A DNA stretch of 64,000 nt from Balanoglossus misakiensis (Eukaryota > Animalia > Hemichordata), in NCBI GenBank assembly GCA_040954595.2, contig CM082590.2:5518001-5582000 (forward strand). The letters are read 5' to 3'. Below are positions 6,346-64,000 of this stretch, piece by piece. The position numbers were made by a program, and so were the translations under genes. The notes under the pieces were generated by a model that was not told the DNA's origin, did no database searches, and saw nothing but the letters and a program-made list of their open reading frames with translations. Within the stretch, counting starts at the first letter, position 1, and every line of letters begins with the position of its first letter.

Positions 6346-7042
6346 CCAATCTATGTATAGAATAAAAACATTACACCTTCACGCTACAATTAGTCAATAA
6401 TCTTTACCCTTCCCATGGCTAAGATACGAAAATGGCGTCTATGCACCCATCTCTCTACTTTGCATACATAAGTAAGTATGAATTTGTGGTGAACATTTGG
6501 TGGACTTCCAGTCACCCATTTTTAAATGAAAGTAGAAAACATAAAATGCATACTCTCCCTGTCAAAAAAGGTTTCCAAAGACAGGTAACAATTTTAGCAT
6601 TTTTACCCATTGTTGATGAGTTGCCATCTGTGAAGAGAACGAACTTTGTGAAAAGAAGCGATTTTGAATAATGTACTTGTGCAAACATTATATTGTATGT
6701 GTACTGCTTAACAAAATGCCATGTAAAGCAATACCATTCTACGGACATTATTCTACACTCATTTCAGTATTTTCTTTAGAAAACTGTCTTCCACTTGCAA
6801 TTTTCTGGTTAACATAAAAAAGTAATTAATTCCAAGAAATCTTTCATCGCTCATGAAAATCTCCCCAAATTAATGACCTAACCAATCAACTGAAAAAAAA
6901 AACTGAATATAGAATGTTAGCTATTGTGTTTATGCAATTTCTGAGTAGATATTTTGCAATAAAGGAAGCTTCCTTATGGACTTGCTAAGTATATTTTTTT
7001 TGGTTTGTTTGACAAGATATTGTCTATAGGAATGAGCTGTGA

Positions 7043-8190
7043 CCATTCTTGCATTCATGTCCATGTACATGATGTGTCTATAGACATATTGTGACAGACA
7101 AATTATTACAACTCTGGTATTCTGTATACAATGTACTTCAAGTAAAGTTGTTCACATTGACTTCATAAATGATCTGTGTCCATTCTTGCATTCATGTCCA
7201 TGTACGTGATGTGTCTATAGACATATTGTGATCAGACAAATTATTACAACTCTGGTATTCTGTTTACAATGTACTTCAAGTAAAGTTGTTCACATTGACT
7301 TCATAAATGATCTGTGTCCATTCTTGCATTCATGTCCATGTACGTGATGTGTACGTGATGTGTCTATAGACATATTGTGATCAGACAAATTATTACAACT
7401 CTGGTATTCTGTTTACAATGTACTTCAAGTAAAGTTGTTCACATTGACTTCATAAATGATCTGTGTCCATTCTTGCATTCATGTCCATGTACGTGATGTG
7501 TCTATAGACATATTGTGATCAGACAAATTATTACTACTCTGGTATTCTGTTTACAATGTACTTCAAGTAAAGTTGTTCACATTGACTTCATAAATGATCT
7601 GTGTCCATTCTTGCATTCATGTCCATGTACGTGATGTGTCTATAGACATATTGTGATCAGACAAATTATTACAACTCTGGTATTCTGTTTACAATGTACT
7701 TCAAGTAAAGTTGTTCACATTGACTTCATAAATGATCTGTGTCCATTCTTGCATTCATGTCCATGTACATGATGTGTCTATAGACATATTGTGATCAGAC
7801 AAATTATTACAACTCTGGTATTCTGTTTACAATGTACTTCAAGTAAAGTTGTTCACATTGACTTCATAAATGATCTGTGTCCATTCTTGCATTCATGTCC
7901 ATGTACGTGATGTGTCTATAGACATATTGTGATCAGACAAATTATTACAACTCTGGTATTCTGTTTACAATGTACTTCAAGTAAAGTTGTTCACATTGAC
8001 TTCATAAATGATCTGTGTCCATTCTTGCATTCATGTCCATGTACATGATGTGTCTATAGACATATTGTGATCAGACAAATTATTACAACTCTGGTATTCT
8101 GTTTACAATGTACTTCAAGTAAAGTTATTCACATTGACTTCATAAATGATCTGTGTCCATTCTTGCATTCATGTCCATGTGATGTGTCCA
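7043..8190. repeat. 138-bp tandem repeat, about 8.3 copies, just downstream of the ROCO stop codon (probable 3' UTR)
   Basis: CCATTCTTGCATTCATGTCC recurs at 7043, 7180, 7318, 7467, 7605, 7743, 7881, 8019 and 8157. Confidence 0.95.
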
Positions 8191-8296: not shown

Positions 8297-11200
8297 TCAT
8301 TTCGTTTGTGTTTTCGCAATTTCTTCGAACATCTCTTCAATCAACGCTACCATGTCGTCTCTTCCCATGGTCTTGAAAATTGCCAACAGATTCTCAAAGT
8401 TGCTTTCGAAGAGGGCTCCCTCTACACGTGGATACTTCTGTCTTGCTTCTCCACTTGACATTCTTGCCATACTGCCTTCGGTGGCATCGATGTCATGTGA
8501 CATGGCTCTGGCACCTGCAGCTGTAGTTCTGTCTCTTCCACTTTGATGTTGTTTCCTCTCAGCACATATACGACACCACTCTTTGAAGAGGTACTCTGTA
8601 ACTGGTCTGCCTGCCCGACCCGCAATCTCTTCAAATCCCATGGTATCCTGGCACTTAATGCCCATCAAATCTGCCATGCGGCCATAGCTCAGAGAAGGAT
8701 CACGTTGAATGTCCATTCTCCTTGTCAGTTTTCTTCTGGTTTCTTCAAGCATCCATTTGATATCACAGCGTTTCCACTTCCTTCGTAAGATCGTTGTGTC
8801 ATGACCTTGACAAAGCAGGTCACAAACATCTTCTGCTTTACCAACTTTTTTGTTGTACACTTTCTTTCCCATGTCTTCTGCACGTAGCACCTCATCGAGA
8901 GTGTAAAACTCTACTTTTTCCATGTTGCTGTGGTTTGCAAGAGAATCTGCACTCAGGATAAGCTGATTCATCCTGTTGCCTGGACATGCGATCGAGAAGA
9001 CATCCTGTATGTCTTTGGAAACCATCTCAAGAAGCTTGTAGCCCTCACCAATCAACTTCTTGTCTTCAACTCGTACACAGACATTGACTGCCCTTCTGCC
9101 ATTGGTCATAAAGACAAGACCTTCAACATCATGGCACACTTTGATACCATTTCTCCATAAGCCACTGGGCGGCTGGCCAAGCTCTGTGAAATGCTTATAT
9201 AGACGGGTCTGTAATCTTGGGAAAAAGCCTGCCGTAAAGGAATCTGTTTCATCGTGGCATTCAAAACGTCTTCCAAGGTAGATGGTCTTCATTCGGCTCA
9301 CCTCCCATTGACCTTCAGGCATATCGTCGTCTTGAAGCCCTGGTATGACGAAAAGTTTCTCTCCCGTCTCTGTGATATCATGTGCTTGACAGAGAAGCTC
9401 AAAATCCTCTAGAAGGTCGACGATCAGTTGGCTGTTAACACCTTCACCAAGTACATCTTCTATCTTGTCCATTGACTGAAAACAATCTCTCTTGAATCTG
9501 GAACTGAATTGTGCAAATAAAGGGGTAGCCAACATTGGTCCAAACATCCTGGAACACAACCAGTTTGGATCCAATACCACGACATCTTTTCTTTCTAGAG
9601 ATGACTTCTTCACAAACAAAAGCTGTAAACAAGAAAAAATATCGTGAAAAATTGTTATGGAAGGAACAATCTGTAACTCTTTTACACATCAACAGCATTA
9701 AACGCTGATAATTTCATTTTGTCAAGTTTGATGTATTGCATACACTCATCCCAGAATTTGTACTAACAGAGAATGGATGAGCAACATGTTGTTTCTTGTT
9801 ACTGACCTCTCCTATGTCATGCAGATAGTTGGTGGCTTTTCGTAAGAAACTTTCGTCAATCGTGGGGTAAATTTCTTTTATTCTTGCAACATATTCTATC
9901 CAATAAAGAGCTGGGAATTTTCTTTTGTACAATTCCCTCTTCTTTTCCATTATCTTGGCACACACGCTTGGAAGCATTTTCACTTTCTAAGAATAAAAAT
10001 AAATGGATAACATGAAATAATTGGAAGTAGCCAAACATTATGTTCAGTCAATTTAGGGACTCTGTCACAAAAAAGAAATATTAAATAAAACCATGACTGG
10101 CCATGCAAGTCTAATAAGTGACACATAAAACAAAGCATAGAATTTTATTTATCCAATGAAAATTTATGTTGAAAATATCTGTAGTATACATGGGGGCAGG
10201 GGACCAAAGAAGTATCTTTGTAAATCAAGTATCATTTTGACAAGATTTTCTTTTGCTTTAAATTCAAATTCTGATTTTCAGTGGAACTGACCTTATCTTG
10301 TTTCAACATTTTCATCATTTGTAATTTGGTAAAAAGCATCTCACAACCATGCATTCCAGCTAACATTATTTTTTGTTTGTAATTACTGAAAATGTTACTT
10401 TTGCCAGAAATTCTAATATCAACTAATACTTGTACAACATGATGAGGATGTAATATTTTACACTTTCAGATATATATTCTTCATGAATATTGTAGTTGTA
10501 CACCAATACTGCAGTGCTATAGTGTATCTGTGCTGATAAAACTTAACAATTCAGAGGCAAATGACTACAGCGAAATATTGTTACCTTTTTCTGATTTAAA
10601 CAATCACGAACTTTCTTCATTTCACTGTCTGTAGAATCACGGCAATTCAACGGAAAGATGTCACTCACTATGTCTAAATAATCTTGAAACATAGTCTGGG
10701 CTTCTGTCAGAACCTCCTTCAGCAAATGACGAGCTGTAAATTATAAAGAGATGATAATATTAATACATACATACATACATACATACATACATACATACAT
10801 ACATACATACATACATACATGCACACACATACATACATACACACACTGTACATACACACACTTGGACAAATGAGAGATATTGTTTGATATATGAAAAAGC
10901 TGACAACACCAACCTAGAGCCATATCAATTCTCTTCAACTTATCAGCTCGACTTGCAACCAATATCACCACTGGTTTCTCGTATCCTTCTCCTGACTTAT
11001 CAAATGAATACCTGTCCATGTGGGTTGTTCCTTTCAGAAACCGCAACCAAAACAAAATCTACAAATGAGAATATTTGTGAAAAGTATTATTTTTGAGTCC
11101 AAGGGATCATGAATTGAATCCAATATGAGATTTCTCATGATTCAGGTAATATCCAGAGCTATGGGATAAACAATGTAAAATAATTATTGAACAACAATGG

Positions 11201-14200
11201 CATGTTGGTTCTGCAGGAGACTAATTATAGAAATATCTGCAACTCTTTCAAAAAGCCAGGAATGGTGACCGAGATAGTGTTGCACATGGAATAAAGTTTC
11301 TCAAACAGCTATATTTTCCATTCCTACAGATAAAACTTGGAAAGTGATAAACAAAACAGTCTAACTTTCCTGTGAAGATTCTTACCTGTGGGAACACACG
11401 TTCAAAGGTGTTGAGTTTACCATTCTCGTCTGTAGCTTTGAACACCAATATGGAGACAGCATTGGGTGCTCCCAGAAACATGTTATGAGTGACGTAATAC
11501 TCAGCCTGGCCGGCAAAATCCCAAACACTGACATTTCCGACGTCAGGAATATGAACACTTTGGACATCAATACCAGGTGTGGGAATGTGTTCACTTTCTT
11601 CAGATTCCAGGGTTGTTTCTTCACTCTTTGATAAGGGGGAGTGAAAGAAAAAATTACATATAATTCCACTATATATTTCTTTGTTTGACGTCATCCTATA
11701 TGAGTGGTTTTCGGGGAGTTGTGCAACTTCGAGCCGTAGATGAGAAGTTGACGTCTCCGTGAAAACCACGAGTATATAATGACGTTAAACAAAGAAAAAT
11801 ATCATGGGATTATATATTTATCACATGACAGGCATCTCTTGCTTCACAAATCACAGAAAATGACATTTTGACGACAGAGTGAGTAATGGTTTATTAAGAA
11901 TTCATTCTGGCCCATCAAGTTTCACACAAGCAACCCTTAATTAATTGTAATATGGCTTACTAGAACTTTAACGCAAATGAAACAAAAATATCAACATACC
12001 CTCTGAAGTGACTCCAATAATGTAGTCTTACCAACTCCACCATCTCCAGCGAAGAACAACTTAAAAGTGTCACATTTCACACCTGGTTCCATCATCAGGA
12101 CCTTGAACTCCTTTCGTCTCTGGTTGAATAAAGAAATCATAAAAATACAATTTTATTTGTGGGTTTGGAGAGTACAGTTAAGAGTGACACCACATTAAGT
12201 AATTTATATCACACTGAAATCAATGGACACTTTGAATTCAAGATGAATAAGAATAAGCACATTTCAGGTTGTATATTATTAAAATTCATGATAATATAAA
12301 AAGTACACTCACCTGAATGTAATCCAACAGCACCTCCTTCTGAGACTCTTTAGCGACATCAAGTGGTGTCTTTCCAGTCTAATTATTTAAGATAAAAAGA
12401 ATTGAAACATTATGATGTAAATATTTATAAAAGTAGTAATAATGTAAGAGATACCATAATTCAAAATTCATTAAATTCTAATGTAATTTTAAAGTTTTGT
12501 TTTACATTTTTCATGAAAAAAATAACCACATCAAGTGACATGTTTAATAGTGAATAAAACCTGAATTTCACAAAATCAACAATCATTTAAAGAAAATGAA
12601 CACTGATTCCTCTTTTCCATCACACTGTATCAAAAGTACAGAATTATTTAAAACACAAATAAGAAAAATCTCCTTATTAGGAATTGTCAGATAATTAGGT
12701 GACAGACAGCAGTTTGCAGATGCTGGAGGCCGACAGACAATCGCCCTATCTGATACTCTCCACATCACTGAAAGTGGAGATAGAAAGTCTCAAAGATAGG
12801 ATTGGCATCGACCGTCATGAGTCAACACCTGCCTGTACAACACCTGACCCGATAGAGGGAGTAGTTTTGATTCAAAGGACAATGGCAAATAGATACATTG
12901 TATCCTAAACAAAATTTACCACAAAAACTACAATGGAAAGAAGACCATTGTGCAAACTCATACTGTTTTAGGAGTGTTTGGTTAAAATAGTGTCCACACA
13001 TTTTCAAGACTTTTATAAAATTCTGCATTTCAAATTCAAAGTTTATGAAGATTAACTACTTGAGAAAATGGGAGTTGATCAGAACACATGGTGTAGGTCT
13101 AGAGTGTCATGGAATAAAATATAAAAGTGGAAGATTGTACCTTATTTTTGCAGTCAATATCAGCTCCATATTGCAACAATAGTTTCACAACTTGTCCATA
13201 ATCCTTCCAAGACTCTTTGCCCATTGCTGCCACATGGAGTGCTGTGTTGCCATCCTATCCAAGAAACAAAAACAGACAATATCATGTAAGAGGTACAACA
13301 AGAAAAGTTATGCATAAACAGCGCAACCAAACAGACTACCAACGTTAACACTGAAATGATAATTAACCTCTAGTTTTTCAACAGTACTTAGGATGCTTAT
13401 ATCATTTTTTGAGTTGGATGTCTCCACGTCAATGTAGCTTTAAATGATATAGTTGAATTAAATGAATGCATTGTGTGTATTTCGTCCACCATGTCAGAAT
13501 GTTGAATTTCAGACAACATAACTTTCCTCTTAATGATGAACAATTTAAAGAAAATATGGGTAGTAGATTGTGCCTTTATTCATCTTGACCGTTTTGAGGG
13601 AAAAACTGATTGGGATCAATTTGTAAAGATCTGCGTAAGACCAGAAAATTTACATGGATGGGAAATCTTTATTTAGACAAAAGACTAGAGATGACTTTGA
13701 TGACCATTAATGTTCAGAAAGTGTTTGTTTGAGTGAAATACTGTGTTTTGACTCGCATAGAGCACCTAAGTTACTGGTATCATTATCAGAGGTACAGAAC
13801 TTGTCTGTGGTCATCCATTATTATGAAGCAGTTCCTTTGTGAGTAACTTATTTTCTTTTCAACACCGTTCAAGTGAGTATTTCTGTATGTAATGGAGGAG
13901 GAGCATGAGAACAATGTCATAACATTTGAAACGTTCTGTGAGGTTTCCTAAACGAACAAATAAACAAACAAATAAATGTTTCTAAACTAATAGAATTAAC
14001 CTGCAATAGCCAGGTTGGTATTTACCTTGTTTTGTATGGTCACATCAGCTTTGTGTTCCAATAACAATCTGAGACCGCCTTCATTGGGACACCCTGCTGC
14101 AGAGTGCAAAGGGGTGTTTCCATCCTGTAAGTAATGAAGGAGGAACATGATGAGGATGTCAGAAAACTGAAATGTCACATGAGTTAATTTCTAAAAATGA

Positions 14201-17200
14201 TCAAATGAATAAAAAAACAAACAACAAATAGTCTTCATAAACTCAAACATCTCAAACAATGAAAAAAACTCCTAATAATGAATTGTTAGATTATTAGGTG
14301 ACAGACAGGAGTTGGCAGATGCTGGAGGCCGACAGACAATCGCCCTATCTGATACTCTCCACATCACTGAAAGTGGAGATAGAAAGTCTCAAAGATAGGA
14401 TTGGCATCGACCGTCATGAGTCAACACCTGCCTGTACAACACCTGACCCGATAGAGGGAGTAGTTTTGATTCAAAGGACAATGGCAAATAGATACATTGT
14501 ATCCTAAACAAAATTTACCACAAAAACTACAATGGAAAGAAGACCATTGTGCAAACTCATACTGTTTTAGGAGTGTTTGGTTAAAATAGTGTTCAGGCAT
14601 TTTCAAGACTTTTATAAAATTGTGCATTTCAAATTCAAAGATTATGAAGATTAAACTACTTGAGAAAATGGGACTTCATCAGAACACATGGTGTAGGTCT
14701 AGAGTGTCACGGAATAAAATATAAAAGTGGAAGATTGTACCTTATTTCTGCAGTCAATATCAGCTCCATATTGCAACAATAGTTTCACAACTTTTCCATA
14801 ATCCCCATACCACTCATCGCCCATTGCTGCCATGTGAAGTGCTGTGTTGCCATCCTATCCAAGAAACAAATACAGACAACATCATATAAGAGGTACAACA
14901 AGAAAAGTTCTGCATAAACAGCTCAACCAAACATACAACCAACGTTAACACTGAATTGATAATTAACCTCTAGTTTTTCAATAGTACTTAGGATGCTTAT
15001 ATCATTTTTGAGTTGGATGTCTCCACGTCAATGTAGCTTTAAATGATAGAGTTGAATTCAATGAATGCATTGTGTGTATTTCGTCCACCATGTCAGAATG
15101 TTGAATTTCAGACAACAGATAAATTTCCTCATAACGATGAACAATTTAAAGAAAATATGGGTAGTAGATTGTGCCTTTATTCATCTTGACAGTTTTGAGG
15201 GAAAAACTGATTTGGATCAATTTGTAAAGATCTGCATAACACCAGAAAATTTACATGGATGGGAAATCTTTTTTTAGACAAAAGACTAGTAAGAGATAAC
15301 TTTGATGACCATTAATGTTCAGAAATTCTTTGTTTGAGTGAAATACTGTGTTTTGACTCGCATAGAGCACCTAATTTACTGAACTTGTCTGTGGTCATCC
15401 ATTATTATGAAGCAGTTTCCTTGTGAGGAACTTAATTTCTTGTCAACACCGTTCTGGTGAGTATTTCTGTATGTAATGGAGGAGGAGCATGAGAACAATG
15501 TCATAACATTTGAAATGCTCTGTGAGGTTTCCTAAACAAACAAACAAACAAACAAACAAACAAATATTCCTATACTGATAGAATTAACCTGCAGAAGCCA
15601 GGTTGGTATTTACCTTGTTTTGTATGGTCACATCAGCTTTGTGTTCCAATAACAATCTGAGACCGCCTTCATTGTTATACTCTGCTGCATCATGCAAAGG
15701 GGTGTTTCCATTCTGTAAGTAATGAAGGAGGAGCATGAGAACAACGTCATAACATTTGAAACATACTGTTAGGTTTCCTAAACAAACAAACAAACAAACA
15801 AACAAACAAACAAACAAAAAACAAACAAACAAATAAATGTTTCTATACTGATAGAATTAACCTGCAGAAGCCAGGTTGGTATTTACCTTGTTTTGTATGG
15901 TCACATCAGCTTTGTGTTCCAATAACAATCTGACACCGCCTTCATTGTCAGACCCTGCTGCAGAGTGCAAAGGGCTGTCTCCTCTCTGTAAGTAATGAAG
16001 GAGGAGCATGAGAACAATGTCATGACATTTGAAACATACTGTTAGGTTTCCTAAACAAACAAACAAACAAACAAACAAACAAAAAACAAACAAACAAATA
16101 AATGTTTCTATACTGATAGAATTAACCTGCAGAAGCCAGGTTGGTATTTACCTTGTTTTGTATGGTCACATCAGCTTTGTGTTCCAATAACAATCTGACA
16201 CCGCCTTCATTGTCAGACCCTGCTGCAGAGTGCAAAGGGCTGTCTCCTCTCTGTAAGTAATGAAGGAGGAGCATGAGAACAATGTCATGACATTTGAAAC
16301 ATACTGTTAGGTTTCCTAAACAAACAAACAAACAAACAAACAAACAAACAAACAAACAAAAAACAAACAAACAAATAAATGTTTCTATACTGATAGAATT
16401 AACCTGCAGAAGCCAGGTTGGTATTTACCTTGTTTTGTATGGTCACATCAGCTTTGTGTTCCAATAACAATCTGACACAGCCTTCATTGTGAGACCCTGC
16501 TGCATCATGCAAAGGGATGTTTCCATTCTGTAAGTAATGAAGGAGGAGCATGAGAACAATGTCACAAAATTTGAAATGTAATGCGAGGTTTCTTAATAAA
16601 ACAAACAAACAAATATTAAAATGTAATGTGAAGTGTAAACAAACAAACTAACAATAAATAAACCAACAAATAAATAAAAATTTCAAAGTATCAGCCATAT
16701 TGCAAAAAACAACCAAGAATGGCATACTGACTGATTTGAAAGGATAATCCACAGTCCTTCCACACACAAAATGAAAATTGCCGACTGTTAAAGTGAATAC
16801 AGATTCAAGTATGACAGTGAAGAATCTCAATTGATTCTAACAGCGAGGAAAACACTTTGATTGGTGATATAGATTTGATAATGGATGTTTTAGTCTCCAT
16901 AGCTAAGTTAGGGGTGGACCATTTGATATTCAGGGTGGGAGGGATCTGGAAGATTAAAAAAAAGATTGCCAGCAAAATTACAGCGATGCCTTGAAAACAC
17001 AAAACACAAAAAAATCCATAAAAATTTAATTTCTGGAACATATTTATTCATTCAGGCACAAACTGTGTCAACTTCTTTGGCCAAATTGTAAAGATCGTTA
17101 AATTTAGAGTACAATGTGTCCTACTGTCCTTCCTATGGCTGGATCCCAAGGCTATCATGGTCATTAAAACTAAATCAGTACGGGTAATAATTTTTGGATT

Positions 17201-20200
17201 TTCCCTCTTCTTGTTCAGGGGTTAGCTTGTTTCTTCCCATTGAATTTGGATCATGCAAAGTAATTTTGGATGAAAATAATATTGTGTTGTAATTAGGTCT
17301 TTTTAAAAGGATTTTTTTTAAATTATTCATTTATGTAGCCATGTTATCCATAATGAAGTAACAAGTCAGTTCACGTACCACATCCTTCGCACTGACATCT
17401 GCACCATGGCTAATCAACACCCTGACAGCATCCAATTGACCTTTCCTGGACGCTTCATGCAATGCTGTGAAACCATTCTGGAATGAAGACATTTAAAGTT
17501 GGAATAAAAATGACATCACCAATCTGATACTTGGAATGTGTCAACCGCTCAATCTAATATTCATTTCTTGTTAACAACAAGAAATGAATATTCACACACT
17601 CCTAGCAGCAAGAGAAAGATCAAATTTAACTCTACAAATAAATGTTTCATGATTTCCATCTGACAGTCAATAAAATAATCATCAAAAGTTTCCACTGTGG
17701 TCATGAAGTTGTAAGTACGCATGTAGCCACGTTATCCATAATGAAATATTTCTTGCTGAAAAAAGAAATAGAATCTAATGATCTGTCAGTGAAAAGCTGT
17801 AAGGGGTTGTCAACATATGGGGCTGCTGTCATGGTTGCCAATAGAAGTGGTGTTGCAAGCAAATTGAAGTCTGACAATAATTTGATCATTAGTGTGCATT
17901 GTGTTTGCCAAAGGTTGGCATTGGCTTGTACTGACAGTAATACAAACATAAAGTATGTGAAGGATGTGTCCACAATAATTCGGCAGCTTTGGCAGTTTTT
18001 TGAAAATTCCCCAAAGAGGTTAGCAGCATATCTGAAAATCAAGAAAAGCTTGCAAAAATAAAGTTAACCTCTGACAAGAGTCAGAAAATTGTCATGCACA
18101 GACTTAAAAAAGCTTGCAACATCAGGTGGTTGAGTTTCAATCTAGCTGTAGAGGCAACTCTGAGGGATTTGGAGGCATTGCTCCTTACTCTGAATGACTT
18201 TGAAGATGATGCACTTGCATGTGGCCTGCTAAAGAAAATAAAGTCGGTGAAATTTGTTGGCACATTGTATATATTGCAGTCTGTATTGCCCATTTTGTCA
18301 GAGCTGTCTCTTGTGTTTCAAAGAGATCAAGTTAACTTCTCCCTCATTGCAAGCATGGTTTCAGCAACTAAAGATAAACTGAAACAGATTCTCAGTGATA
18401 ATGTGCCAATAAAGAAGTTTGTGTCTGATAGTGACTCATTCACAAATATATCTTCTGAACTATCTTTCCAGGGCAGCGGCAAGCTTGATCTTGAAAGTCT
18501 GATGAGAAAGTACATTGGTGCTCTCATAGAGAATATAGATAGTAGGTTTGCTGAGTCATCTCCAGTGCTCACTGCACTGTCTGTCTTTGACCCATTGAGT
18601 ATGCCAAGTAAAGAAAATGCAACTTTTAGTTCATATGGGGAAGCACATATCAAAGTACTTGCTGATCACTTTTACCACAATGAGGAAGTTCAGAGGTCGC
18701 GGTAAATTTTTTTTGAGTGCGTTTTTTTGACGCATTCGTCAAAAAAATTGCGTCAAACTCCTTTCAGCCTGCGTCCTAGACATGTCTAGTCCAATATTCA
18801 TTAAACAAAATTAGCTACATTTTGAGTACAAAAGGTTGGGCGCACTAGTGGTTGCTACATTTTGAGTACAAAGTTTGCGCGCACAAGTGATTATTTTGAT
18901 CCCAGGGGGATAGTCAGCGGTATGCGGTATCACACGTATGGTTTCCGTTGACCATTGTGCATATAGAGCGGCCGTTCCTATGCGTCAATATTGACGCACT
19001 GATTTAGATTTCTGCGTCCAAGTGAGGATTTTTGCGTCAAATACGCATACTTTCTGCGTAAACGCGACCTCTGGAAGTTGCTGTAAAAGAAAACAAAACA
19101 CAGAAATTAGTGAATGAGTTTACACAACTTAAATACTACTATGTAGATTACATGAAGGCAAATATGCCTACTGATGTTGAGGAATGTAAAGGCACTGTTA
19201 CACCAACTCAGTGGCTCTTGACTGAGTTCGTGAGATGTGACAGCTTAACCCCATTTTTCCCAGAGATAACTAAAATAGCTGAAGCTGCACTCTGTGTTCC
19301 TGTGAGTAATGCTTAGCCTGAAAGGGGTGCAAGCACTTTGAAGAATGTCAAAACTAGATTGAGAAGTAGACTGTCAAGTGAAATGTTAGAATCTATAATG
19401 CATATCCCCCAGTTGCCAGTGCTGAGGCAGAACAGATAATATCTCGAGCTGTAGAACAGTGGGAACAAGCCAAAAGTAGAAGATACCGCACAAAAGTACA
19501 GGTGCATGTACCATCATCATGTGTAGACAGTGACTCTGATGGGGCTCCAGATGGGGCCATTTATGCTGATGCTTCAGTGCAGGTTGATATTGAGGTTGAG
19601 ACTGAGGAGGAAAGTGTTTCCATACAACATGAAGTTACAGAAGTGTCAAGTGCTTTAGGGTTATCAGAGAACTCAGACCCAGATAGTGATTTTGAATTTG
19701 ATTGAAGACTGTATTGTAACATGATACATAACTAGAGCTGTAATAAAAGGTTAAAACACTCAAATGAGTTTGTGTGTATGTGTTTGTGTGTAGAATGAAT
19801 TGGGGGGGGGGGGGGGGGGGGGTCAAAGGTCAACATGTCCCTAGCCCCCGCATGATTGGCCCCCTACTTTCAACTATGACCCTCTACTTCATATTTAAGT
19901 GAAACCCCTGTGAATTAATGAGTCAGTTCACGTACCCTATCCTTCGCATTGACATCTGCACCATGGCTAATCAACTCTCTCATAGCATCCAATTGACCTT
20001 TCCCGGACACTTCATGCAATGCTGTGGAACCCATCTGGAATGAAGATGTTTAAAGTTGGAATAAAAATGACATCACCAATCAGATACTTGAAATGTGTCA
20101 ACCGCTCAATCTAATATTCATTTCTTGTTAACAACAAGAAATGAATATTCACACACTCCTAGCAGCAAGAGAAAGATCAAATTTAACTGTACAAATAAAT

Positions 20201-23200
20201 GTTTCATGATTTCCATCTGACTGTCAATAAAAGAATCAACCAAAGTTTCCACTGTGGTCATGAAGTTGTAAGTACGCATGTAGCCATGTTATCCATAATG
20301 AAGTAACAAGTCAGTTCACGTACCACATCCTTCGCATGGACATCTGCACCATGGCTAATCAACTCTCTCATAGCATCCAATTGACCTGTCCTGGACGCTG
20401 AATGCAATGCTGTGGAACAATCCTGGAATGAAGACGTTTAAAATTGGAATAAAAATGACATCATTAATCTGATACTTGAAATGTGAGTCAAACTACTTGA
20501 TAACGAATTTCATCACAATGAGCTTCAGTCACTCTATAAAAAATCGCGTCAAGGACATGGTGGTCCCATTTAGGGATTACACAGAAGAAGTCTACACCGG
20601 AGTACATATACAGACAGACGCAAATACACACATAGAGAGATCAACAGGCAAACACTGACTGACCCATAAGCTGCCAATGGTGTCCTGTACATACACCAAA
20701 TAGAACAGCTGGTCTCTTTAATAGTTGGCCAGTTATGTAAACATGCAGGAATTTGCTGTGTATACAAATGACAGTAGGGGTGTCTCTCTTATTTATACAA
20801 AGAACTACTGTAAAACACTTTTTTTCGCGAGTCAAAATTTTCGCGATATGGAGAGAGGCCACTGTTACGCGAGTATAAATTTTCGCGTTTTCACACATTG
20901 TTCTTTCACAAACTATATGTACTCGTGTCTTTATTTTCACGTTTTTTTTTGGCTCTCGCGTATTTAGCGTAAATTTAATGCTCGCAAAAATAAAGTGTTT
21001 TACAGTATGTAGTGGTAATTGCTCTTCATGAGATAAAATATTTTGCGTTATAAGACAATATATCCTACAAAATATAGAAGTTCCAAATTATCTAGGATTT
21101 GACTCCATAATAATTCTAAAGAAGCCAATCCCATTAACTTACAACTCAAATTTTAAAATAATCAACCATACAGTGTACACTTTCTGAGAAATATAATTTT
21201 TTATCAAAATTCGAAAATATGCCCCAAAAATACAAGATATTGTCCCCACAAAAAAATTCACACTTTAATCAAAGGTTTTGTAAATCATCATGAGAACTCA
21301 CCCCGGAAAGTAATGGGGGTAGAGGGTCTGAGAAAGAGTTTTGACCAAAAATGGCAAAAATCACCCCAAAAATATACTATTGAATTCTTCACGTTGATTT
21401 GAAAAACATACATGCAAATCTTACCAAATTCCAATGCAATCTGACAAGCAGTTTTAGACTTGGAGGAAAAAAAATTATCAAAAAAGCCAAAAATTGCTCC
21501 AAAATTATAAAGATGCAAATTTTGCAACAATTTAAACAAAACTATAGTAACTCAGATCACATATATGAAGCTTCATACTAAAATGTCAAAGAAGTCGGCT
21601 GATCAATTCCAGAAAAGTAGATTTTTTACCAAAAATGTGAAAAAAGACAAAAAAATGCATAAAAAATAGAAAATTCACTCTTTTAGCTCAAAACATACAG
21701 AACCGTGTGAGGTTAACAAAAGACTAATTTTCAAATCAATATGACCATTGGTTGTTGAGTTTCTTCAGTTTTGACCAATTTCACGTTTTCCCAGCTAATT
21801 TGCATATTTTGGGCAATGACAACTTCATTTGAACAAACTCCCATCTACAGCTCATAATGCATCAACACACCAAATATGGAGGTTACACGCGGTGGTTTTC
21901 AAGTTTTTGATGTGGACGGACATACAGACATCCATACATACATCCATACAGACGCAACTGATTCCATAAGGTCCCATGGTATATTACATCACCAAATGGG
22001 ATCTAAAAATGGTTTTGATTTAAGATGGTGTGCTATTTCAGTAATAGACAAAGATTGATATGAAACCGAATGATCATAATAATTGTTATTTTTTCTGAGG
22101 TTGAGTGACAATTCTCTATGACCAAAATACATGTGTGTAGCTGAACCACATTAAACACAACAAATATTTTAACACACCATGCAGCGAACCCTCGGTTGTG
22201 ATTCGTCAATACGCCGTCACATGACCTTTGTCATTTCGAACTGTTCCCTAGGGCATCAGTTCGATCGGTTTCTGCCCAGTACTGTTGCCTGGATGTGGTG
22301 TGTGTCGTGTTTGGTGTGTTATAAAACACATGATGACTGACACATTTGGGCAACAGTGTATTTTTGATGACCTCGGGACTGCCAGTCACACCAAAACAGT
22401 CTGTTTTCCCTCGGGCTATGCCCTCGGGAAAACAAGACTGTTTTAGTTGTTACTGGCAGTGCCCTCGGTCATCAAAATACACTATTGCCCTCATTGTCAG
22501 TCATCATGTGTAAAACTGGAATTGCTGATGGGGCCGATCGAGTGCCAGTGGGTCTAATGTGTGTGCGTTTTTAATTCTGTGGTTACAAATGACAAACAGT
22601 GTCTCTGAAATATTTCTAGTCTCATCAAGTGTGAACATGGTATCAGTTTATAGTAGTTTTGTTCAATGTGGTTCAGCTTAGTGCTACAACAGTAACAGCA
22701 TCAGGGGTGCTATAGAAAGCGGTGTTGCGAACTGCAACAACATATTTGCAAACAGGAAAGTGCGTTGGACCTTGAAAAACGCCCTAGTTGAGAATTGATT
22801 CCCACCAAGGAGAAATTGAGTTGACCCCTAAAAATACCTAGAAAACATTGGTTGAGGGCGCATTCAACATGGTGCAAACTGTTTGCAGTGGACATCCCAG
22901 TGTCAGTAAGTGTATTTTTCATGGAAAAATTAACATAAGGAATATTTTGTTTGCATCAAGAATCCATTTTATTTCAACAAAAATCATTATTTTAAGAGGA
23001 TATTTTCATTAAAATTTGTTGCATACCAGAAAGCCAGGCTGTCTATTGTTATTTTGTTGTATGTAATTGAAATACAATTTCAGGCAAATTTATTTAGCTC
23101 TTTGCGTGCACTGCACATGAAAAATAAAATATCAAACGCTAGTCTTGAGCGATGACTCTGAATTAAACATCGGTCAATACAAAACACTTACCACATACTG

Positions 23201-26200
23201 GTAGTAACCCTTTGCATTGACATCATATCCATCAGCTATCAGCGACTGAATCTTTGCAACATCACCCGTCCATGCGGCATCGAAGAGATCCTGTAACATT
23301 CAACAAGAAACACTTCTTTTATCAAAATATTCTCAAAATGCAATCATAAGCAACAGAAATATAAAACAAAGGAAAAAACATTGAAATCATCATTAATGAA
23401 GAATTATGAAAACAAAACATGATCATGTCACTGTCAATAAAATAATGACATCATATTGTGAGTAAACAAAGACAAGACAAAACAGCAAGATCTCCAAAGG
23501 GCAACAGGAAAACAGAAATACAAAACCGGTGGTGGCACTCCCAGGGAAAATGGACATTGCTTCTCCATAAAATTTCAAGACTTGATCCTTTTTCCATGAC
23601 TTTTCAACAATACAGATAGACAAATTGCGAAATATAGAAGATTATTATACACCTACTGCTGTAACCTATGGAGTTCCGTAATACAATAATTCGTGGTATC
23701 ACCATACAATAATTATTAAAATGAGGACGCGGAGTCCAATAACACCAGGGTTATTGGACGCATTTTGATTCACGGGTGTTTAATGTGAACAATGATGATA
23801 TTACACCCTACTCTCACAAAAATTATATATAAAAAGTACACAGTCGTTATTAAACAAAATTATTGGTGACCCAAGATGCGAAATAAGTCAAAATCCTCGA
23901 TGAAATTTCAGTCGAAGGAATCTGTGAACGAACAGGCGAGCGCGTTCATTTCAAGTATCAGAACGAGCTCAGCGCAAGCAGCGTAGAATGTCGCGCGCGA
24001 GACAGGCAGTTCGACACTAGCATCACCTGATGCGCAAGGTGAAGGCGCGTTCGATATGCAAATTACATCATGGCGGTGTCTGAAAACTAGAAAGTCCGAT
24101 AGCGGCCAATTTATTCTTTATCGTTCATGAAGAACGTTCAGAAAAGGTGTATAATAATAAGGTTATTCACAAAATACCGGGACTTATGTGATTGTCCTCG
24201 TACATCGTACGCTTCGGTATTGTCCTCGACGCTGCGCGTCTCGGACAATACCTGCGCTGCATGATGTACTCGGACATAAATCCCGGTATTTTGTGAATAA
24301 CCTTATAAAATCAGACAATAAAAGCCCCCTTGGCGCTTAATTTACAGAAACTGGGACAGATAATGCCATAATACAAATACATTTTAGCAATAACATTGTT
24401 TCTAATACAAAGAACTTGGCTTTAGACACCCATCTGTATTTCAAATCTCGCTTGAACATTGTTGGAAGAAGTATCATTTTTTTTATCATTTTCAAAGACA
24501 GTGATGATAACTGGAAAGCATCCCCTTCTCTGTGATAGTTTTGGGAACATGCATGGATAGCCATTATCCCTGAGTGTATCACCACCACTGGGGTAAAAGT
24601 TCACAATCTTTTGACAATCACATTCATATATTTTCTTTATTTTCTCATTCTGCATACAGAAATATACAGAGCTTCCCTCTGTAGTTTTTCTCTGTAGTAC
24701 CGTAGGTACCATGAGTATGTGAGAAATAACACAATGACTTTGTTGCAGACAAAATTGATGTTCAAGAATGTGGTCATTAAACAATGCAATTTAACAAGAA
24801 TGATATGAATACTTTTCTATCACTGCTACAAAAACCAAGTGATCAAAGGTTAGCATGACATTAAACTGAGTGCGGCTGAAACACCCTTCGCTTACAATCG
24901 ACGTTTGTGTCACCTTGAATGAACTCGCCTACAGGTCAGAAAGGTCATTGTCTTTTGATATGGTAATTGGTATCTATGTGGAGTGAGCCACTGTAGAGAT
25001 GCTAATCAGACTCTGGAATGATTGACTATACAGTAATACAGACATAGATTGAAAACGATTTGGGCTGTATATTGGATACTTAGTAAGCTATTTAGTGTTT
25101 TTTATTCAAAATTATCTCTATGACATTTGGAACAATTAAAAAAAAATTCTGTTTACATTTGCACTTTATATTCTGCATAAATCAAATATGGCCGCCAAAT
25201 GAATGTTTGACAGCTTAATATCATACTCCACCATATACAATAAGGTTCTGGCATAGAAAATATGTTTTAGCACTAGAAAAATACACAAAAGAGAATGAAA
25301 AATGGTTCCAGATTCAAGCATACACTGAAAAAGAAGGTCTAAGTTATAGCTAATGGAGTAAAAAAATAGTAAGGTAACATCTCAGTTTATTTAACAGGTG
25401 TTCGTGTAACCAAGTCGCCACAATACGTTTCAGCTGATTTTTAAGACTTAGATATATGATCTAAATATTATTTTCGGAGATAAAGTACGACCTTCAAGTT
25501 AAATAATAATCTACAAGCGTCATTTAATTGACATTTTAATACTTTAGGAAGTATATCGTTAAACCGATGTCAGGTTTAATGAAGTCATGTGATTATAATT
25601 ATTTGTTGCATTGCTATTACATTTTCATTTTACATATTAATGTAGGGGAGTTTTATATTTGCTTCGTTACGCATTTCTAGTGCTACAACATATATTCTAT
25701 GGTAGAACCTTATTATATATGCTGGAGTATGATAAACTGTCAAACATTCATTTGGCGGCCATATTGGATTTATGCAAAATATAACATGCAAATGTAAACA
25801 AAATATTTTCAAAATTGTTCCAAATGTCAGAGAGATAGTTTTGAATTAAAAACACTAAAATAGCTTACGTAGTACCCGATATGCTGCCCAAATATGGTTT
25901 TGTAGGAATACTGTTCAGCATATTGAATTTATGCAAATTATGAAACATGCCTATGTCAAATATTATTCCAAAATGGTTCTTCATGCAAATGAAATATTTT
26001 TAAACTTTAAAATAATGGAAAATGTCCTGTTTTTTTCTTGATATTTAGCTCCAAAATTTTCAATATTAAATTTATGCAAATTAGACATATTTCCACAAAA
26101 TGGATTCGGGTGCATTTTTGATATGTTGTTCTAGACACCTCTCCAAAATATATTCTGAAGAAAAAAATTATGTTGCAATTTGTATTGGGTTAGGTGCCCA

Positions 26201-27077
26201 AATGTTGAAATCTCGTAGATTGACTAGACTATAAGTGCGACTGAAACACCGTTCGCTTACAATCAACATTTGTGTCACCTTGAATGAACTCGCCTACAGG
26301 TCAGAAAGGTCATTGTCTTTTGATATGGTAATTGGTATCTATGTGGAGTGAGCCACTGTAGAGATGCTTATCAGACTCTGGAATGATTGACTATACAGTA
26401 ATAAAGACATAGATTGAAAACGATTGATTGTGATAACAAAATATGACGAGCAGTTTATTACAAGTGAAATCTTTGTATGTCCAGCACAAACAACGAACAG
26501 TCTCCATGATGTTAATTGTTACAAGTTGTGTGCCCCACCCACAGTCTCTCCATGATGTTAATTGTTACAAGTTGTGTGCCCCACCCACAGTCTCTCGATC
26601 CACACAGACACCTCACTCAGAACTCACGGATTGACTGACTGAATTCCACAGATGTTTGGACAGTCATTGTCATGCAGAACAAATCAGAGCTTCGCGTGTA
26701 GACAGACATTTTAGGGGTACAATACACGCATAGCACAGAGCTGGTTGGAGCTGACTTGCAATTGGAGCCCACATATATTGCCGTGTCTACAAGTTGTTGT
26801 GTGCCATGTTGTATTTCATCGACAATTTGTCAAGTTTTCACAACTGTCATTTTGCTGCGACATGTTCTGTCCGAGCGGTAATTTGTAAATTTTGTCCATC
26901 AAAAGTTTCATTCCACCCGAAACATGAATAATGTCAGCAGACGGATATTTATTCTGAAACACCTGATGATTAGATTATGGGCGTCCATGACCAGAGACGG
27001 AATTCTACAAACTCAGAAACTGTTGCCCGTTCAGTTCAAGGGTCACTTACCAGTGACCTCCATTCCTGGGAAGCCAT
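8297..27077 (-). CDS. Ankyrin repeat-Roc-COR-Death domain ROCO protein (DAPK1-like, kinase-less), 19 exons, about 1123 aa
   Basis: GT-AG exons in transcript order: 27051-27077 (MASQEWRSL, acaATGG), 23192-23290, 20324-20422, 19936-20034, 17379-17477, 16429-16527, 16152-16250, 15887-15985, 15614-15712, 14741-14854, 14026-14124, 13141-13254, 12313-12378, 12000-12119 (P-loop GDGGVGKT), 11386-11625 (PTPGI, WDFAG), 10914-11058 (ILVASRAD), 10585-10733 (LNCR), 9807-9986, 8297-9622 (COR: VVLDPNWLC, GFFPRLQ, LWRNG; C-terminal death fold). Phases are compatible and the total of 3372 nt is open. Confidence 0.88.
10763..10860. repeat. (ATAC)n microsatellite in a ROCO intron
   Basis: Direct reading. Confidence 0.95.
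12660..15860. repeat. About 1.6-kb tandem segmental duplication, each copy carrying one C-type and one B-type ankyrin exon
   Basis: Near-identical sequence at an offset of about 1600 bp (12699 vs 14298; exons at 13141 vs 14741). Confidence 0.92.
17746..19910 (+). pseudogene. 5'-truncated hAT transposon with decayed ZNF862-like transposase, in a ROCO intron
   Basis: ORF pieces (D/Y)GAAVM...VHCVCQRLALA, RWLS, and hAT dimerisation motif CVPVSNA*PERGASTLKNVKTRLRSRL with an in-frame stop and frameshifts. Right end is GTGAAACCCCTG at 19910. The left TIR is absent. Confidence 0.88.
18691..19073. mobile_element. Non-autonomous hAT-like MITE nested in the transposase, 6-bp TSD GAAGTT
   Basis: TIR CAGAGGTCGCG / CGCGACCTCTG with flanking GAAGTT repeats. 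Removing it restores the frame HNEEV-AVKENKTQKLVNEFTQLKY. Confidence 0.88.
20808..21005. mobile_element. About 200-bp Tc1/mariner-like MITE (TA TSD, CTGTAAAAC TIR); other copies 35703-35908, 36970-37178, 54215-54421, 60209-60421 and several partials
   Basis: TA-CTGTAAAACAC...GTGTTTTACAG-TA with internal TTTCGCGA repeats. Confidence 0.85.
22326..22511. mobile_element. Palindromic repeat element with CTCG-GGC-TAT-GCC-CTCG core
   Basis: ACACATGATGACTGAC...GTCAGTCATCATGTGT inverted arms. Confidence 0.7.
23643..24306. mobile_element. Repeat element ending in a palindrome (24157-24306) with CTCG-ACGC-TGC-GCGT-CTCG core
   Basis: ATAAGGTTATTCACAAAATACCGGGA / TCCCGGTATTTTGTGAATAACCTTAT, plus an inner TATTATACACCT / AGGTGTATAATA inverted repeat. 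Confidence 0.6.
24869..26425. repeat. 192-bp direct repeat (24869-25060, 26234-26425) flanking a foldback element fragment
   Basis: Near-identical 192-bp copies. Between them, 25052-25280 is inverted relative to 25675-25900. Confidence 0.85.
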
Positions 27078-35908: not shown

Positions 35909-36135
35909 TAGAGCAGTTGATTTGTGGTAGGTAGTTTATAACACCTATTAGAGTACTCAATTTCTCAGCAAATTACTCTGCTGTTAGAAACAGCCAAATC
36001 CGACACGGGTGATGAGAATTAATCCGCAGAACTCAGATTATGGCTGCAAACAACGTGTGTGTGTGTGGGGGGGGGGGGGGGGGGCTGTTGGAAACCCTGG
36101 CACACTTGCTTACCGTAAGTACTGGCGTGTGTCGT

Positions 36136-47673
<11,538 letters not shown>

Positions 47674-55509: not shown

Positions 55510-61913
<6,404 letters not shown>

Positions 61914-62334
61914 CTAAACAGACAATTAGATAAAATAGAAGTTTTTTCAAGGGACAAAGTCTCTCTCTTGCTGCCCTTTTTCCATTAATTATATTTGATA
62001 CAAGACACTGTTTATGGTAATGTACATGTGTATATGTAGGGAATGAAAGTTCAACCACGCACAACTTCCATCCCACTTATATTATATATGAGAGTAAAAA
62101 CTCGCCCAAATTGAATTAATGGTAGAGACTGATTATTCATTTTGGTGATTTTTTTTCACTCTATTATCTGCAAGTGGGATGGAAGTTGTGTGTGGTTGAA
62201 CCTTGATTCACAATACATGTATATCTACATGTACATTAAGGTTATTGTGAAGGCAGGGCTAATTTGTGACCCATCCTTAATTACACATATGTATATCCTT
62301 TGTCCAATCATTGGAAATAAACAAAGTCTCTGAT

Positions 62335-64000
62335 TGACTTCAGAGGGACACTAGTTACATCACAATTCCCAGCAAGGGGTATGGGGTTTTATTGGACCAG
62401 TGGCATGGTTATAGCTAGACGTAGTTTTGGAAGCAAAGCGGACAAAATACGGCTAGATACTAGACTAGCCTATCATCCACACCCAATCACCATTGTTCAG
62501 TTTATGTGAGTGACTTCAAGGGGACGCTAGTAACATCACAATTCCCAGCGAGGGGTATGGGGTTTTATTGGGCCAGTGGCTTTGAGTGAGGCTAGACGTT
62601 AGTTTTGGAAGCAAAGCGGACAAAATACGGCTAGATACTAGACTAGCCTATCATCCACACCCAATCACCATTGCACAGTTTATGTGAGTGACTTCAAGGG
62701 GACGCTAGTTACATCACAACTCCCAGCAAGGGGTATGGGGTTTTATTGGGCCAGTGGCATGGTTGAAGCTAGACGTTAGTTTTGGAAGCAAAGCGGACAA
62801 AATACGGCTAGATACTAGACTAGCCTATCATCCACACCCATTTACCATTGTTCAGTTTATGTGAGTGACTTCAAGGGGACGCTAGTAACATCACAATTCC
62901 CAGCAAGGGGTATGGGGTTTTATTGGGCCAGTGGCATGGTTGAAGCTAGACGTAGTTTTGGAAGCAAAGCGGACAAAATATGGCTAGATACTAGACTAGC
63001 CTATCATCCACACCCAATCACCATTGTTCAGTTTATGTGAGTGACTTCAAGGGGACGCTAGTAACATCACAATTCCCAGCAAAGGGTATGGGGTTTTATT
63101 GGGCCAGTGGCATGGTTGAAGCTAGACGTTAGTTTTGGAAGCAAAGCGGACAAAATACGGCTAGATACTAGACTAGCCTATCATCCACACCCAATCACCA
63201 TTGCACAGTTTATGTGAGTGACTTCAAGGGGACGCTAGTTACATCACAATTCCCAGCAAAGGGTATGGGGTTTTATTGGGCCAGTGGCATGGTTGAAGCT
63301 AGACGTTAGTTTTGGAAGCAAAGCGGACAAAATACGGCTGGATACTAGACTAGCCTATCATCCACACCCAATCACCATTGCACAGTTTATGTGAGTGACT
63401 TCAAGGGGACGCTAGTTACATCACAATTCCCAGCAAAGGGTATGGGGTTTTATTGGGCCAGTGGCATGGTTGAAGCTAGACGTTAGTTTTGGAAGCAAAG
63501 CGGACAAAATACGGCTAGATACTAGACTAGCCTATCATCCACACCCAATCACCATTGTTCAGTTTATGTGAGTGACTTCAAGGGGACGCTAGTTACATCA
63601 CAATTCCCAGCAAGGAGTATGGGGTTTTATTGGGCCAGTGGCATGGTTGAAGCTAGACGTTAGTTTTGGAAGCAAAGCGGACAAAATACGGCTAGATACT
63701 AGACTAGCCTATCATCCACACCCAATCACCATTGTTCAGTTTATGTGAGTGACTTCAAGGGGACGCTAGTAACATCACAATTCCCAGCAAGGGGTATGGG
63801 GTTTTATTGGGCCAGTGGCATGGTTGAAGCTAGACGTAGTTTTGGAAGCAAAGCGGACAAAATATGGCTAGATACTAGACTAGCCTATCATCCACACCCA
63901 ATCACCATTGTTCAGTTTATGTGAGTGACTTCAAGGGGACGCTAGTAACATCACAATTCCCAGCAAAGGGTATGGGGTTTTATTGGGCCAGTGGCATGGT
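62335..64000. repeat. 180-181-bp satellite, more than 9 copies, running off the window end (CDK4/6 intron)
   Basis: Unit GACTTCAAGGGGACGCTAG...GTTTATGTGAGT is repeated almost identically. Confidence 0.95.

Follow-up and report, generated by a model that had tools for sequence, protein, structure and literature searches.

Two groups of described genes are among those closest to the locus reported here. The LRR-ROC-COR genes of the brown algae Ectocarpus and Saccharina have been proposed to encode immune receptors and to undergo exon duplication or shuffling (PMC3341825, PMC11378527). In fungi, NLR proteins with highly conserved ANK repeats are described, among them Pa_3_8560 and Pa_2_8180 of Podospora; the class of ANK NLRs with high internal conservation comprises those whose repeats are more than 85% alike over at least 100 residues by the T-REKS criterion (PMC4986451). 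The bacterial LRR AP-GTPase-COR conflict proteins form another family (PMC8195603). Here we describe an ankyrin-bearing Roco gene of the acorn worm Balanoglossus misakiensis, carried on the minus strand of a 64,000-nucleotide window (GenBank assembly GCA_040954595.2, contig CM082590.2, positions 5,518,001 to 5,582,000), to which all coordinates below refer. Its subject is a set of near-identical ankyrin exons, termed B exons, that differ mainly in their 5′ halves.

We put at roughly two in three the probability that the B exons are interchangeable one-repeat modules of an intact Roco gene, in which target-facing codons have been driven apart by diversifying selection and the framework has been kept uniform by duplication and, likely, gene conversion, the product being a putative intracellular sensor of a changing and probably foreign ligand. 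The target-facing codons change approximately 3–13 times faster than neutral DNA, which points to a fast-evolving sensor inside the cell as the likely product of the gene.

Variation among the B exons

Five B exons are present, four of them in a tandem array and the fifth further downstream:

B1: 16429-16527, minus strand, 99-nucleotide (nt) ankyrin exon, phase 0, AG acceptor and GT donor; Pfam Ank 35 bits
B2: 16152-16250, minus strand, 99-nt ankyrin exon, phase 0, AG and GT ends
B3: 15887-15985, minus strand, 99-nt ankyrin exon, phase 0, AG and GT ends
B4: 15614-15712, minus strand, 99-nt ankyrin exon, phase 0, AG and GT ends
B5: 14026-14124, minus strand, B-type 99-nt ankyrin exon, phase 0, AG and GT ends, located between exons C1 and C2

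A sequence-only reading of this stretch had proposed these five exons with their peptides, and both are confirmed. It had also noted that the last 15 codons are identical and that a single difference is synonymous. Codons 19–33 are indeed nucleotide-identical in all five exons, and among the ten of 33 codons that vary (14 segregating bases, five exons compared) codon 7 is the sole synonymous one. The replacements listed earlier, at codons 1, 3, 4, 8 and 11–13, are present, but the list omitted codons 17 (G/C) and 18 (V/L). B2 and B3 have the same sequence, which leaves four distinct B copies. Together B1–B4 span 132 residues and differ pairwise at 0–8 of 33 residues (76–100% identity).

The array of B1–B4 (15614..16527, minus strand) consists of units of approximately 265 nt, with an AAAC microsatellite in every intron. 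Near-identity of the introns, claimed previously for all four clustered copies, holds for B2, B3 and B4 (0 of 110 nt for B2-B3, 4 of 110 for B2-B4) but not for B1, whose upstream flank alone differs at 8 of 62 nt and whose pairs differ at 8–10 of 110; for B5 pairs the count is 16–20 of about 109. Both this tandem exon–intron duplication and a mosaic pattern among the copies are observed directly. Specifically, sites 21–23 and site 52 of the B exons are incompatible on one tree (four-gamete conflict), and therefore recombination or repeated change has occurred; the lone synonymous change travels with the codon-8 change. A larger duplication relates 12651-14150 to 14245-15738, with 76 mismatches in 1475 aligned bases. 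Within it, the inserted loops of exons C1 and C2 (codons 13–17) are where this exon pair diverges most; they differ at 8 of 15 nt versus 35 of 857 nt in the introns, in a window chosen post hoc, and a similar C-type insert is present in the closest Ptychodera relative. Relic B-type acceptors occur at 13877-13900 and 15461-15484, and the six bases directly downstream of each match those past the GT of the B donor; tentatively, they may mark a B exon deleted from the duplicated block.

Variable sites were mapped by register to the ANK-N5C scaffold and to solved ankyrins, rather than on coordinates. The original DARPin library randomised repeat positions 2, 3, 5, 13, 14 and 33. In ANK-N5C the randomised positions are 2, 3, 5, 10, 13 and 33 (PMC4308713). 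The union of both sets corresponds to exon codons 33, 1, 3, 8, 11, 12 and 31, which served as seven pre-set binding-face codons. An excess of replacements on this face is observed. Four of the nine variable residues of the B exons fall on one library's set (hypergeometric P 0.034 with either library) and five on the union; put differently, five of the seven binding codons vary (P 0.009), codons 31 and 33 being invariant. The A exons of the same gene, which lie outside the earlier claim, vary at six of these seven codons (P 0.0025). Six control codons, variable but non-binding according to PMC4308713, vary at none in B and at one in A; the seventh such position, 14, was counted with the binding codons instead. 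Variability among 35 divergent ankyrins is similar for control and binding positions (0.85 versus 0.89), and the enrichment persists when the comparison is limited to 24 tolerant positions (P 0.009 for B, 0.004 for A).

The sequence-only reading had placed the variation almost only at DARPin-type positions. Enrichment over chance stands, but this wording is too strong, because four of the nine variable residues (codons 4, 13, 17 and 18) lie on the framework; two library positions, moreover, are fixed. The hot zone reaches the end of helix 1 and the following turn (codons 11–14), of which codons 13–14 belong to the framework of designed libraries.

Probable selection at the binding face

A self-written codon model was fitted with one ratio and with two pre-set site classes. 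For the B exons, the seven pre-set codons gave an omega of 8.2–13.2 (p ~0.002), the highest value being obtained with multi-hit codons. With near introns as neutral sites, omega was 3.5 (p 0.006, or 0.02 with multi-hit codons), and with wider, more diverged introns it was 3.35 (p 0.003–0.007). In all eight B fits, the binding-face omega ranged from 3.4 to 13 with p 0.002–0.02. The A exons gave 3.3–13.9, significant in six of seven fits. The strictest estimates after pooling were 3.0 for A, B and C (p 0.003) and 3.2 for A and B (p 0.003, wide introns and multi-hit codons). By event counts, both A pairs tested, of three, exceed their introns. In simulations of relaxed constraint, at most one synonymous change together with at least seven binding-face changes of 15 had a joint P <=0.0025 in 12 of 12 settings.

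Additional variation comes from two runs (X1 and X2) of one other sample, with approximately 0.4 of words shared; runs X3 and X4 have no cover over B2–B4. To the 175-nt stretch around B4 align 228 contigs from X1 and 199 from X2, numbers that are not read as copy number. The contigs are short and carry no haplotype information, and none of them spans the array. All 28 differences listed relative to B4 are exonic and none falls in 76 intron bases, but the variant table passed through a 3% share filter that biases it toward the hypervariable zone, where depth is low, and it is therefore no clean intron test. Of these differences, 25 lie in codons 1–18, 15 lie in codons 11–14, and 24 change a residue when taken singly against B4. 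The second sample thus holds far more variants than the window and varies independently at codons 1, 3, 8, 11–14, 17 and 18. In related genes of other species, binding positions are more variable than the rest in four of four repeat sets (two from Glandiceps, one each from Amphiura and Ptychodera; p 0.0003–0.03).

Several points, besides the filter just described, weigh against selection as the cause of this pattern. There are only four distinct B copies, and the p-values are asymptotic, derived from 2–4 sequences on a single tree despite recombination and without calibration by parametric simulation. The A exons alone lose significance with wide introns and multi-hit codons (p 0.18). Outside the binding set, omega in B is 0.6–3.2, which is not clearly purifying. 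One of six B pairs exceeds its own introns by event counts and two of six do so by nucleotides, and the synonymous-only binomial p is 0.11. In the other species, the comparison with exposed-control positions is significant in only one of the four repeat sets. Common changes at codons 28–29 (three rows) occur in the second sample, and therefore the 3′ half of B is not fixed across the wider family. Finally, the codon-4 variants of B1–B3 are absent from the second sample; they may be private alleles or errors, at a codon outside the tested binding set.

The last observation, the identity of B2 and B3, and values of omega near 1 outside the binding set in some fits are what would be expected if the array were decaying or mis-assembled and some of its differences were assembly errors or pseudogene drift. 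We regard this as highly improbable, given that all 18 exons keep the reading frame and have intact splice sites and that the second sample varies independently at all of the codons listed above, codon 4 being outside the tested set.

A combination of relaxed constraint and conversion deserves more weight, although we consider it unlikely. Surface positions that tolerate change would drift in young copies, and conversion starting mid-exon would homogenise the 3′ half and the downstream intron, such that the older 5′ halves merely look selected. The upstream flanks of B1 and B5 are diverged, none of the five pairs involving B1 or B5 exceeds its introns by events, the four-gamete conflict and the linkage of the sole synonymous change to codon 8 are in keeping with mosaicism, and new repeats generally undergo strongly relaxed selection (PMC5120217). 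Against this, the 5′ exon shows 11 differences in 54 nt between B2 and B4, whose flanks on both sides are near-identical (4 of 110). Synonymous changes would also be expected in old 5′ halves, yet there is one among a minimum of 15 events (the joint P given above), and change is concentrated in the same way in the A exons and in the C loop.

We conclude that the data, from few sequences, support diversifying selection on binding-face codons. The earlier claim of such selection is partly borne out by the codon model with intron control, in which omega is above 1 at the binding face and the A exons agree, but the sequences are few and, by event counts, a single B pair of six exceeds its introns. 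Taken alone, this locus gives moderate statistical support. Under diversifying selection, unequal crossing-over and conversion would hold the frameworks alike and selection would favour new contact residues.

The host gene, its relatives and its neighbours

The 18 exons of the Roco gene join by canonical splice sites to give 1115 codons with zero internal stops. Their order is a cap, A1–A3, B1–B4, C1, B5, C2 and a second cap, followed by the ROC and COR exons; exon structure, intact frame and domain order are read directly from the spliced sequence. Each of the ten internal repeats, five of which are B exons, occupies one phase-0 exon, a modularity that would permit in-frame gain, loss or skipping of repeats. 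Apart from the B exons, the gene comprises the following features:

27051..27077, minus strand, candidate first coding exon: ATG, 9 codons, phase-0 GTAAGT donor; inferred from sequence, its length in keeping with relatives P0003 and P0010, whose N-termini are short
23192..23290, minus strand, E1, N-cap-like exon of 99 nt, similar to the opening repeat of P0003 and P0010, with a tblastn match; the Pfam scan gave no match
20324-20422, minus strand, A1, A-type ankyrin exon, 99 nt, phase 0
19936-20034, minus strand, A2, A-type ankyrin exon, 99 nt, phase 0
17379-17477, minus strand, A3, A-type ankyrin exon, 99 nt, phase 0; Pfam Ank 40.8 bits
14741..14854, minus strand, C1, ankyrin exon of C type, 114 nt, with a 5-residue insertion after helix 1; Pfam Ank 40.7 bits
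13141..13254, minus strand, C2, second 114-nt ankyrin exon of C type, with a 5-residue insertion after helix 1
12313..12378, minus strand, D, C-cap-like partial repeat, 66 nt
12000-12119 (P-loop), 11386-11625, 10914-11058 and 10585-10733, minus strand, ROC GTPase exons; Pfam Roc on 11386-11625
9807-9986 and 8297-9622, minus strand, COR and predicted C-terminal death domain, the latter exon ending at the stop codon; Pfam COR-B and structure model

The spliced frame carries the ROC G-domain features P-loop GxxxxGKT, switch-I Thr and DFAG motifs; the Pfam Roc match, on one exon (11386-11625), scores 29.5 bits against a cutoff of 27. COR follows ROC directly (Pfam COR-B, 35.2 bits). The Ank, Roc and COR-B matches all exceed their Pfam cutoffs. 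A model of the last exon built from a 32-sequence alignment has a mean predicted local distance difference test score (pLDDT) of 87.7. Its COR portion matches Chlorobium COR (Foldseek E 3.6e-9; Z 14.3, root-mean-square deviation (rmsd) 3.2, 232 aligned). Residues 285–432 match a death domain of the MyD88/IRAK complex (3mop_K; rmsd 1.8, 93 aligned) with a Z of 11.5, a value within the range flagged as common for helical bundles. The Pelle/Tube, MyD88 and FADD death domains match the same residues, and the match list is filled with death folds. The Pfam scan of the last exon gave no Death match, and a single-sequence fold of the C-terminal 177 residues is of low confidence (pLDDT 46.9). The C-terminal death-domain fold is a prediction from the alignment-based model.

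In a six-frame motif scan, kinase motifs were found only at ~60500, past an intervening RRM gene, the 5′ end of the Roco gene being a candidate. The five ankyrin-bearing relatives scanned (P0001, P0003, P0004, P0010 and P0156) yielded no kinase family. By motif scan, then, no kinase appears to belong to the Roco gene. No orphan or opposite-strand repeat exons were found within the 64-kb window. The A2–A3 intron measures 2458 nt versus 289 nt for the A1–A2 intron and holds an insertion of about 2.2 kb near its 5′ end, with broken reading frames (17480-19920). We take these frames to resemble a hAT-type transposase; neither a supporting Pfam match nor a terminal inverted repeat was found.

Among the nearest named proteins, four of four matches come from acorn worms, as do eight of ten proteins looked up, the other two being from echinoderms; the closest are acorn-worm DAPK1-like proteins. 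In a quick tree of 42 rows, which left out matches outside P0001–P0045 and those of <200 or >520 residues, the gene groups first with one protein from Ptychodera (support 98) and next with one from Glandiceps (96). A member of the grouped Ptychodera cluster has the same order of B-type, insert-bearing C-type and cap, and there are several paralogues per acorn-worm species. Two related Roco proteins, P0037 of Amphiura filiformis and P0001 of Glandiceps talaboti, have separately expanded, internally conserved ankyrin arrays of ~26 and ~16 repeats.

If the gene product is a sensor, a ligand bound to the concave ankyrin face would shift the ROC-COR nucleotide and dimer switch (Roco background in PMC6337361). 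The switched ROC-COR would expose or cluster the death domain, and death-fold adaptors could then be recruited, leading to immune or cell-death signalling. Selection might instead be real and its cause non-immune. The repeats could be keeping pace with a selfish element or with a self partner that changes quickly, as in allorecognition, gamete conflict or transposon-protein conflict; alternatively, every repeat could be tuned once when new and fixed thereafter. Roco functions are varied and mostly unknown (PMC6337361), and a regime of divergence followed by fixation is described for repeats (PMC5120217). We nevertheless find a non-immune cause quite improbable, since the second-sample variants, the several paralogues per acorn-worm species and the predicted C-terminal death fold would better fit an ongoing arms race between sensor and effector. 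A broader proposal is possible but doubtful: acorn worms, and perhaps echinoderms, might possess an undescribed family of polymorphic intracellular immune receptors in which natural libraries of ankyrin binders are coupled to a Roco switch with a death domain. Recombination would exchange the phase-0 cassettes of these genes between copies, and exon skipping would mix them, each animal thereby expressing a varied repertoire.

Other features of the window are separate from the Roco gene. An RRM exon lies on the minus strand in the 36100-45806 region (Pfam RRM_1, 64 bits), with Gly-rich frames at ~40500-42000; its gene is likely of the hnRNP A type and is interrupted by 119- and 120-bp tandem arrays (38367-40551 and 42029-42500). 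This RRM gene separates the Roco gene from a protein-kinase exon at 60460-60610, also on the minus strand, whose activation segment we take to resemble that of CDK4/6. Homogeneous tandem arrays occur at 7031-8180 (138 bp, 8.3 copies), just beyond the Roco stop codon, and at 62331-64000 (177 bp, 9.4 copies).

Comparison with known systems

The acorn-worm gene encodes a Roco protein with a DAPK1-type tail and no kinase. In DAPK1 itself, ankyrins precede ROC. As in the DAPK1 group of Roco proteins, ROC-COR is followed by a death domain, here a predicted one, and there is no LRR (PMC6337361). Unlike that group, the gene has no kinase domain that we could find, its array is recently expanded and hypervariable, and its family has many paralogues per species. 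The order of ROC-COR and then a death domain is also that of the models from Ptychodera, Glandiceps and Saccoglossus that databases name 'DAPK1-like'.

With the brown-algal LRR-ROCO genes, in which the ligand face is under diversifying selection, it shares a repeat domain placed ahead of the Roco core, single-repeat exons of one common phase, and a signal of such selection (PMC3341825, PMC11378527). It differs from these LRR-bearing genes in its 33-residue ankyrins, phase-0 exons, predicted death domain at the end and animal host. With the fungal ANK NLRs it shares near-identical ankyrins, a signal of positive selection on the concave face (inner helix and hairpin), and signs of recombination between repeats; those proteins, however, have a NACHT ATPase core with C-terminal repeats and an N-terminal effector (PMC4986451), whereas the acorn-worm gene has a ROC-COR GTPase core, N-terminal repeats, a predicted C-terminal death domain and one repeat per exon. 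The proposed sensor would operate in the manner of both groups, but by repeat type and core enzyme the gene falls outside them. In the open literature, most subscription papers being outside this scope, we found no description of animal ankyrin-Roco genes with diversified exon cassettes. The design has so far been described in brown algae and fungi.

Should the proposed sensor function be correct, deuterostome invertebrates would use fast-evolving intracellular sensors built on Roco GTPases instead of NLR ATPases. They would have arrived independently at two features, the layout of one repeat per exon seen in brown algae and the hypervariable ankyrin surface seen in fungal NLRs. Acorn-worm annotations contain many 'DAPK1-like' genes that lack a kinase, and for these a function open to testing would be at hand. 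As in designed ankyrin libraries (ANK-N5C, PMC4308713, and the original DARPins taken together), a fixed framework carries variation at repeat positions 3, 5, 10, 13 and 14. Unlike in those libraries, natural variation extends to positions 6, 15, 16, 19 and 20 and to the 5-residue insert of the C exons, and positions 2 and 33 are fixed in B. If selection is indeed the cause, the ankyrin positions that it varies, including those at the end of helix 1, in the next turn and in the loop insert, can be compared with those of engineered libraries.

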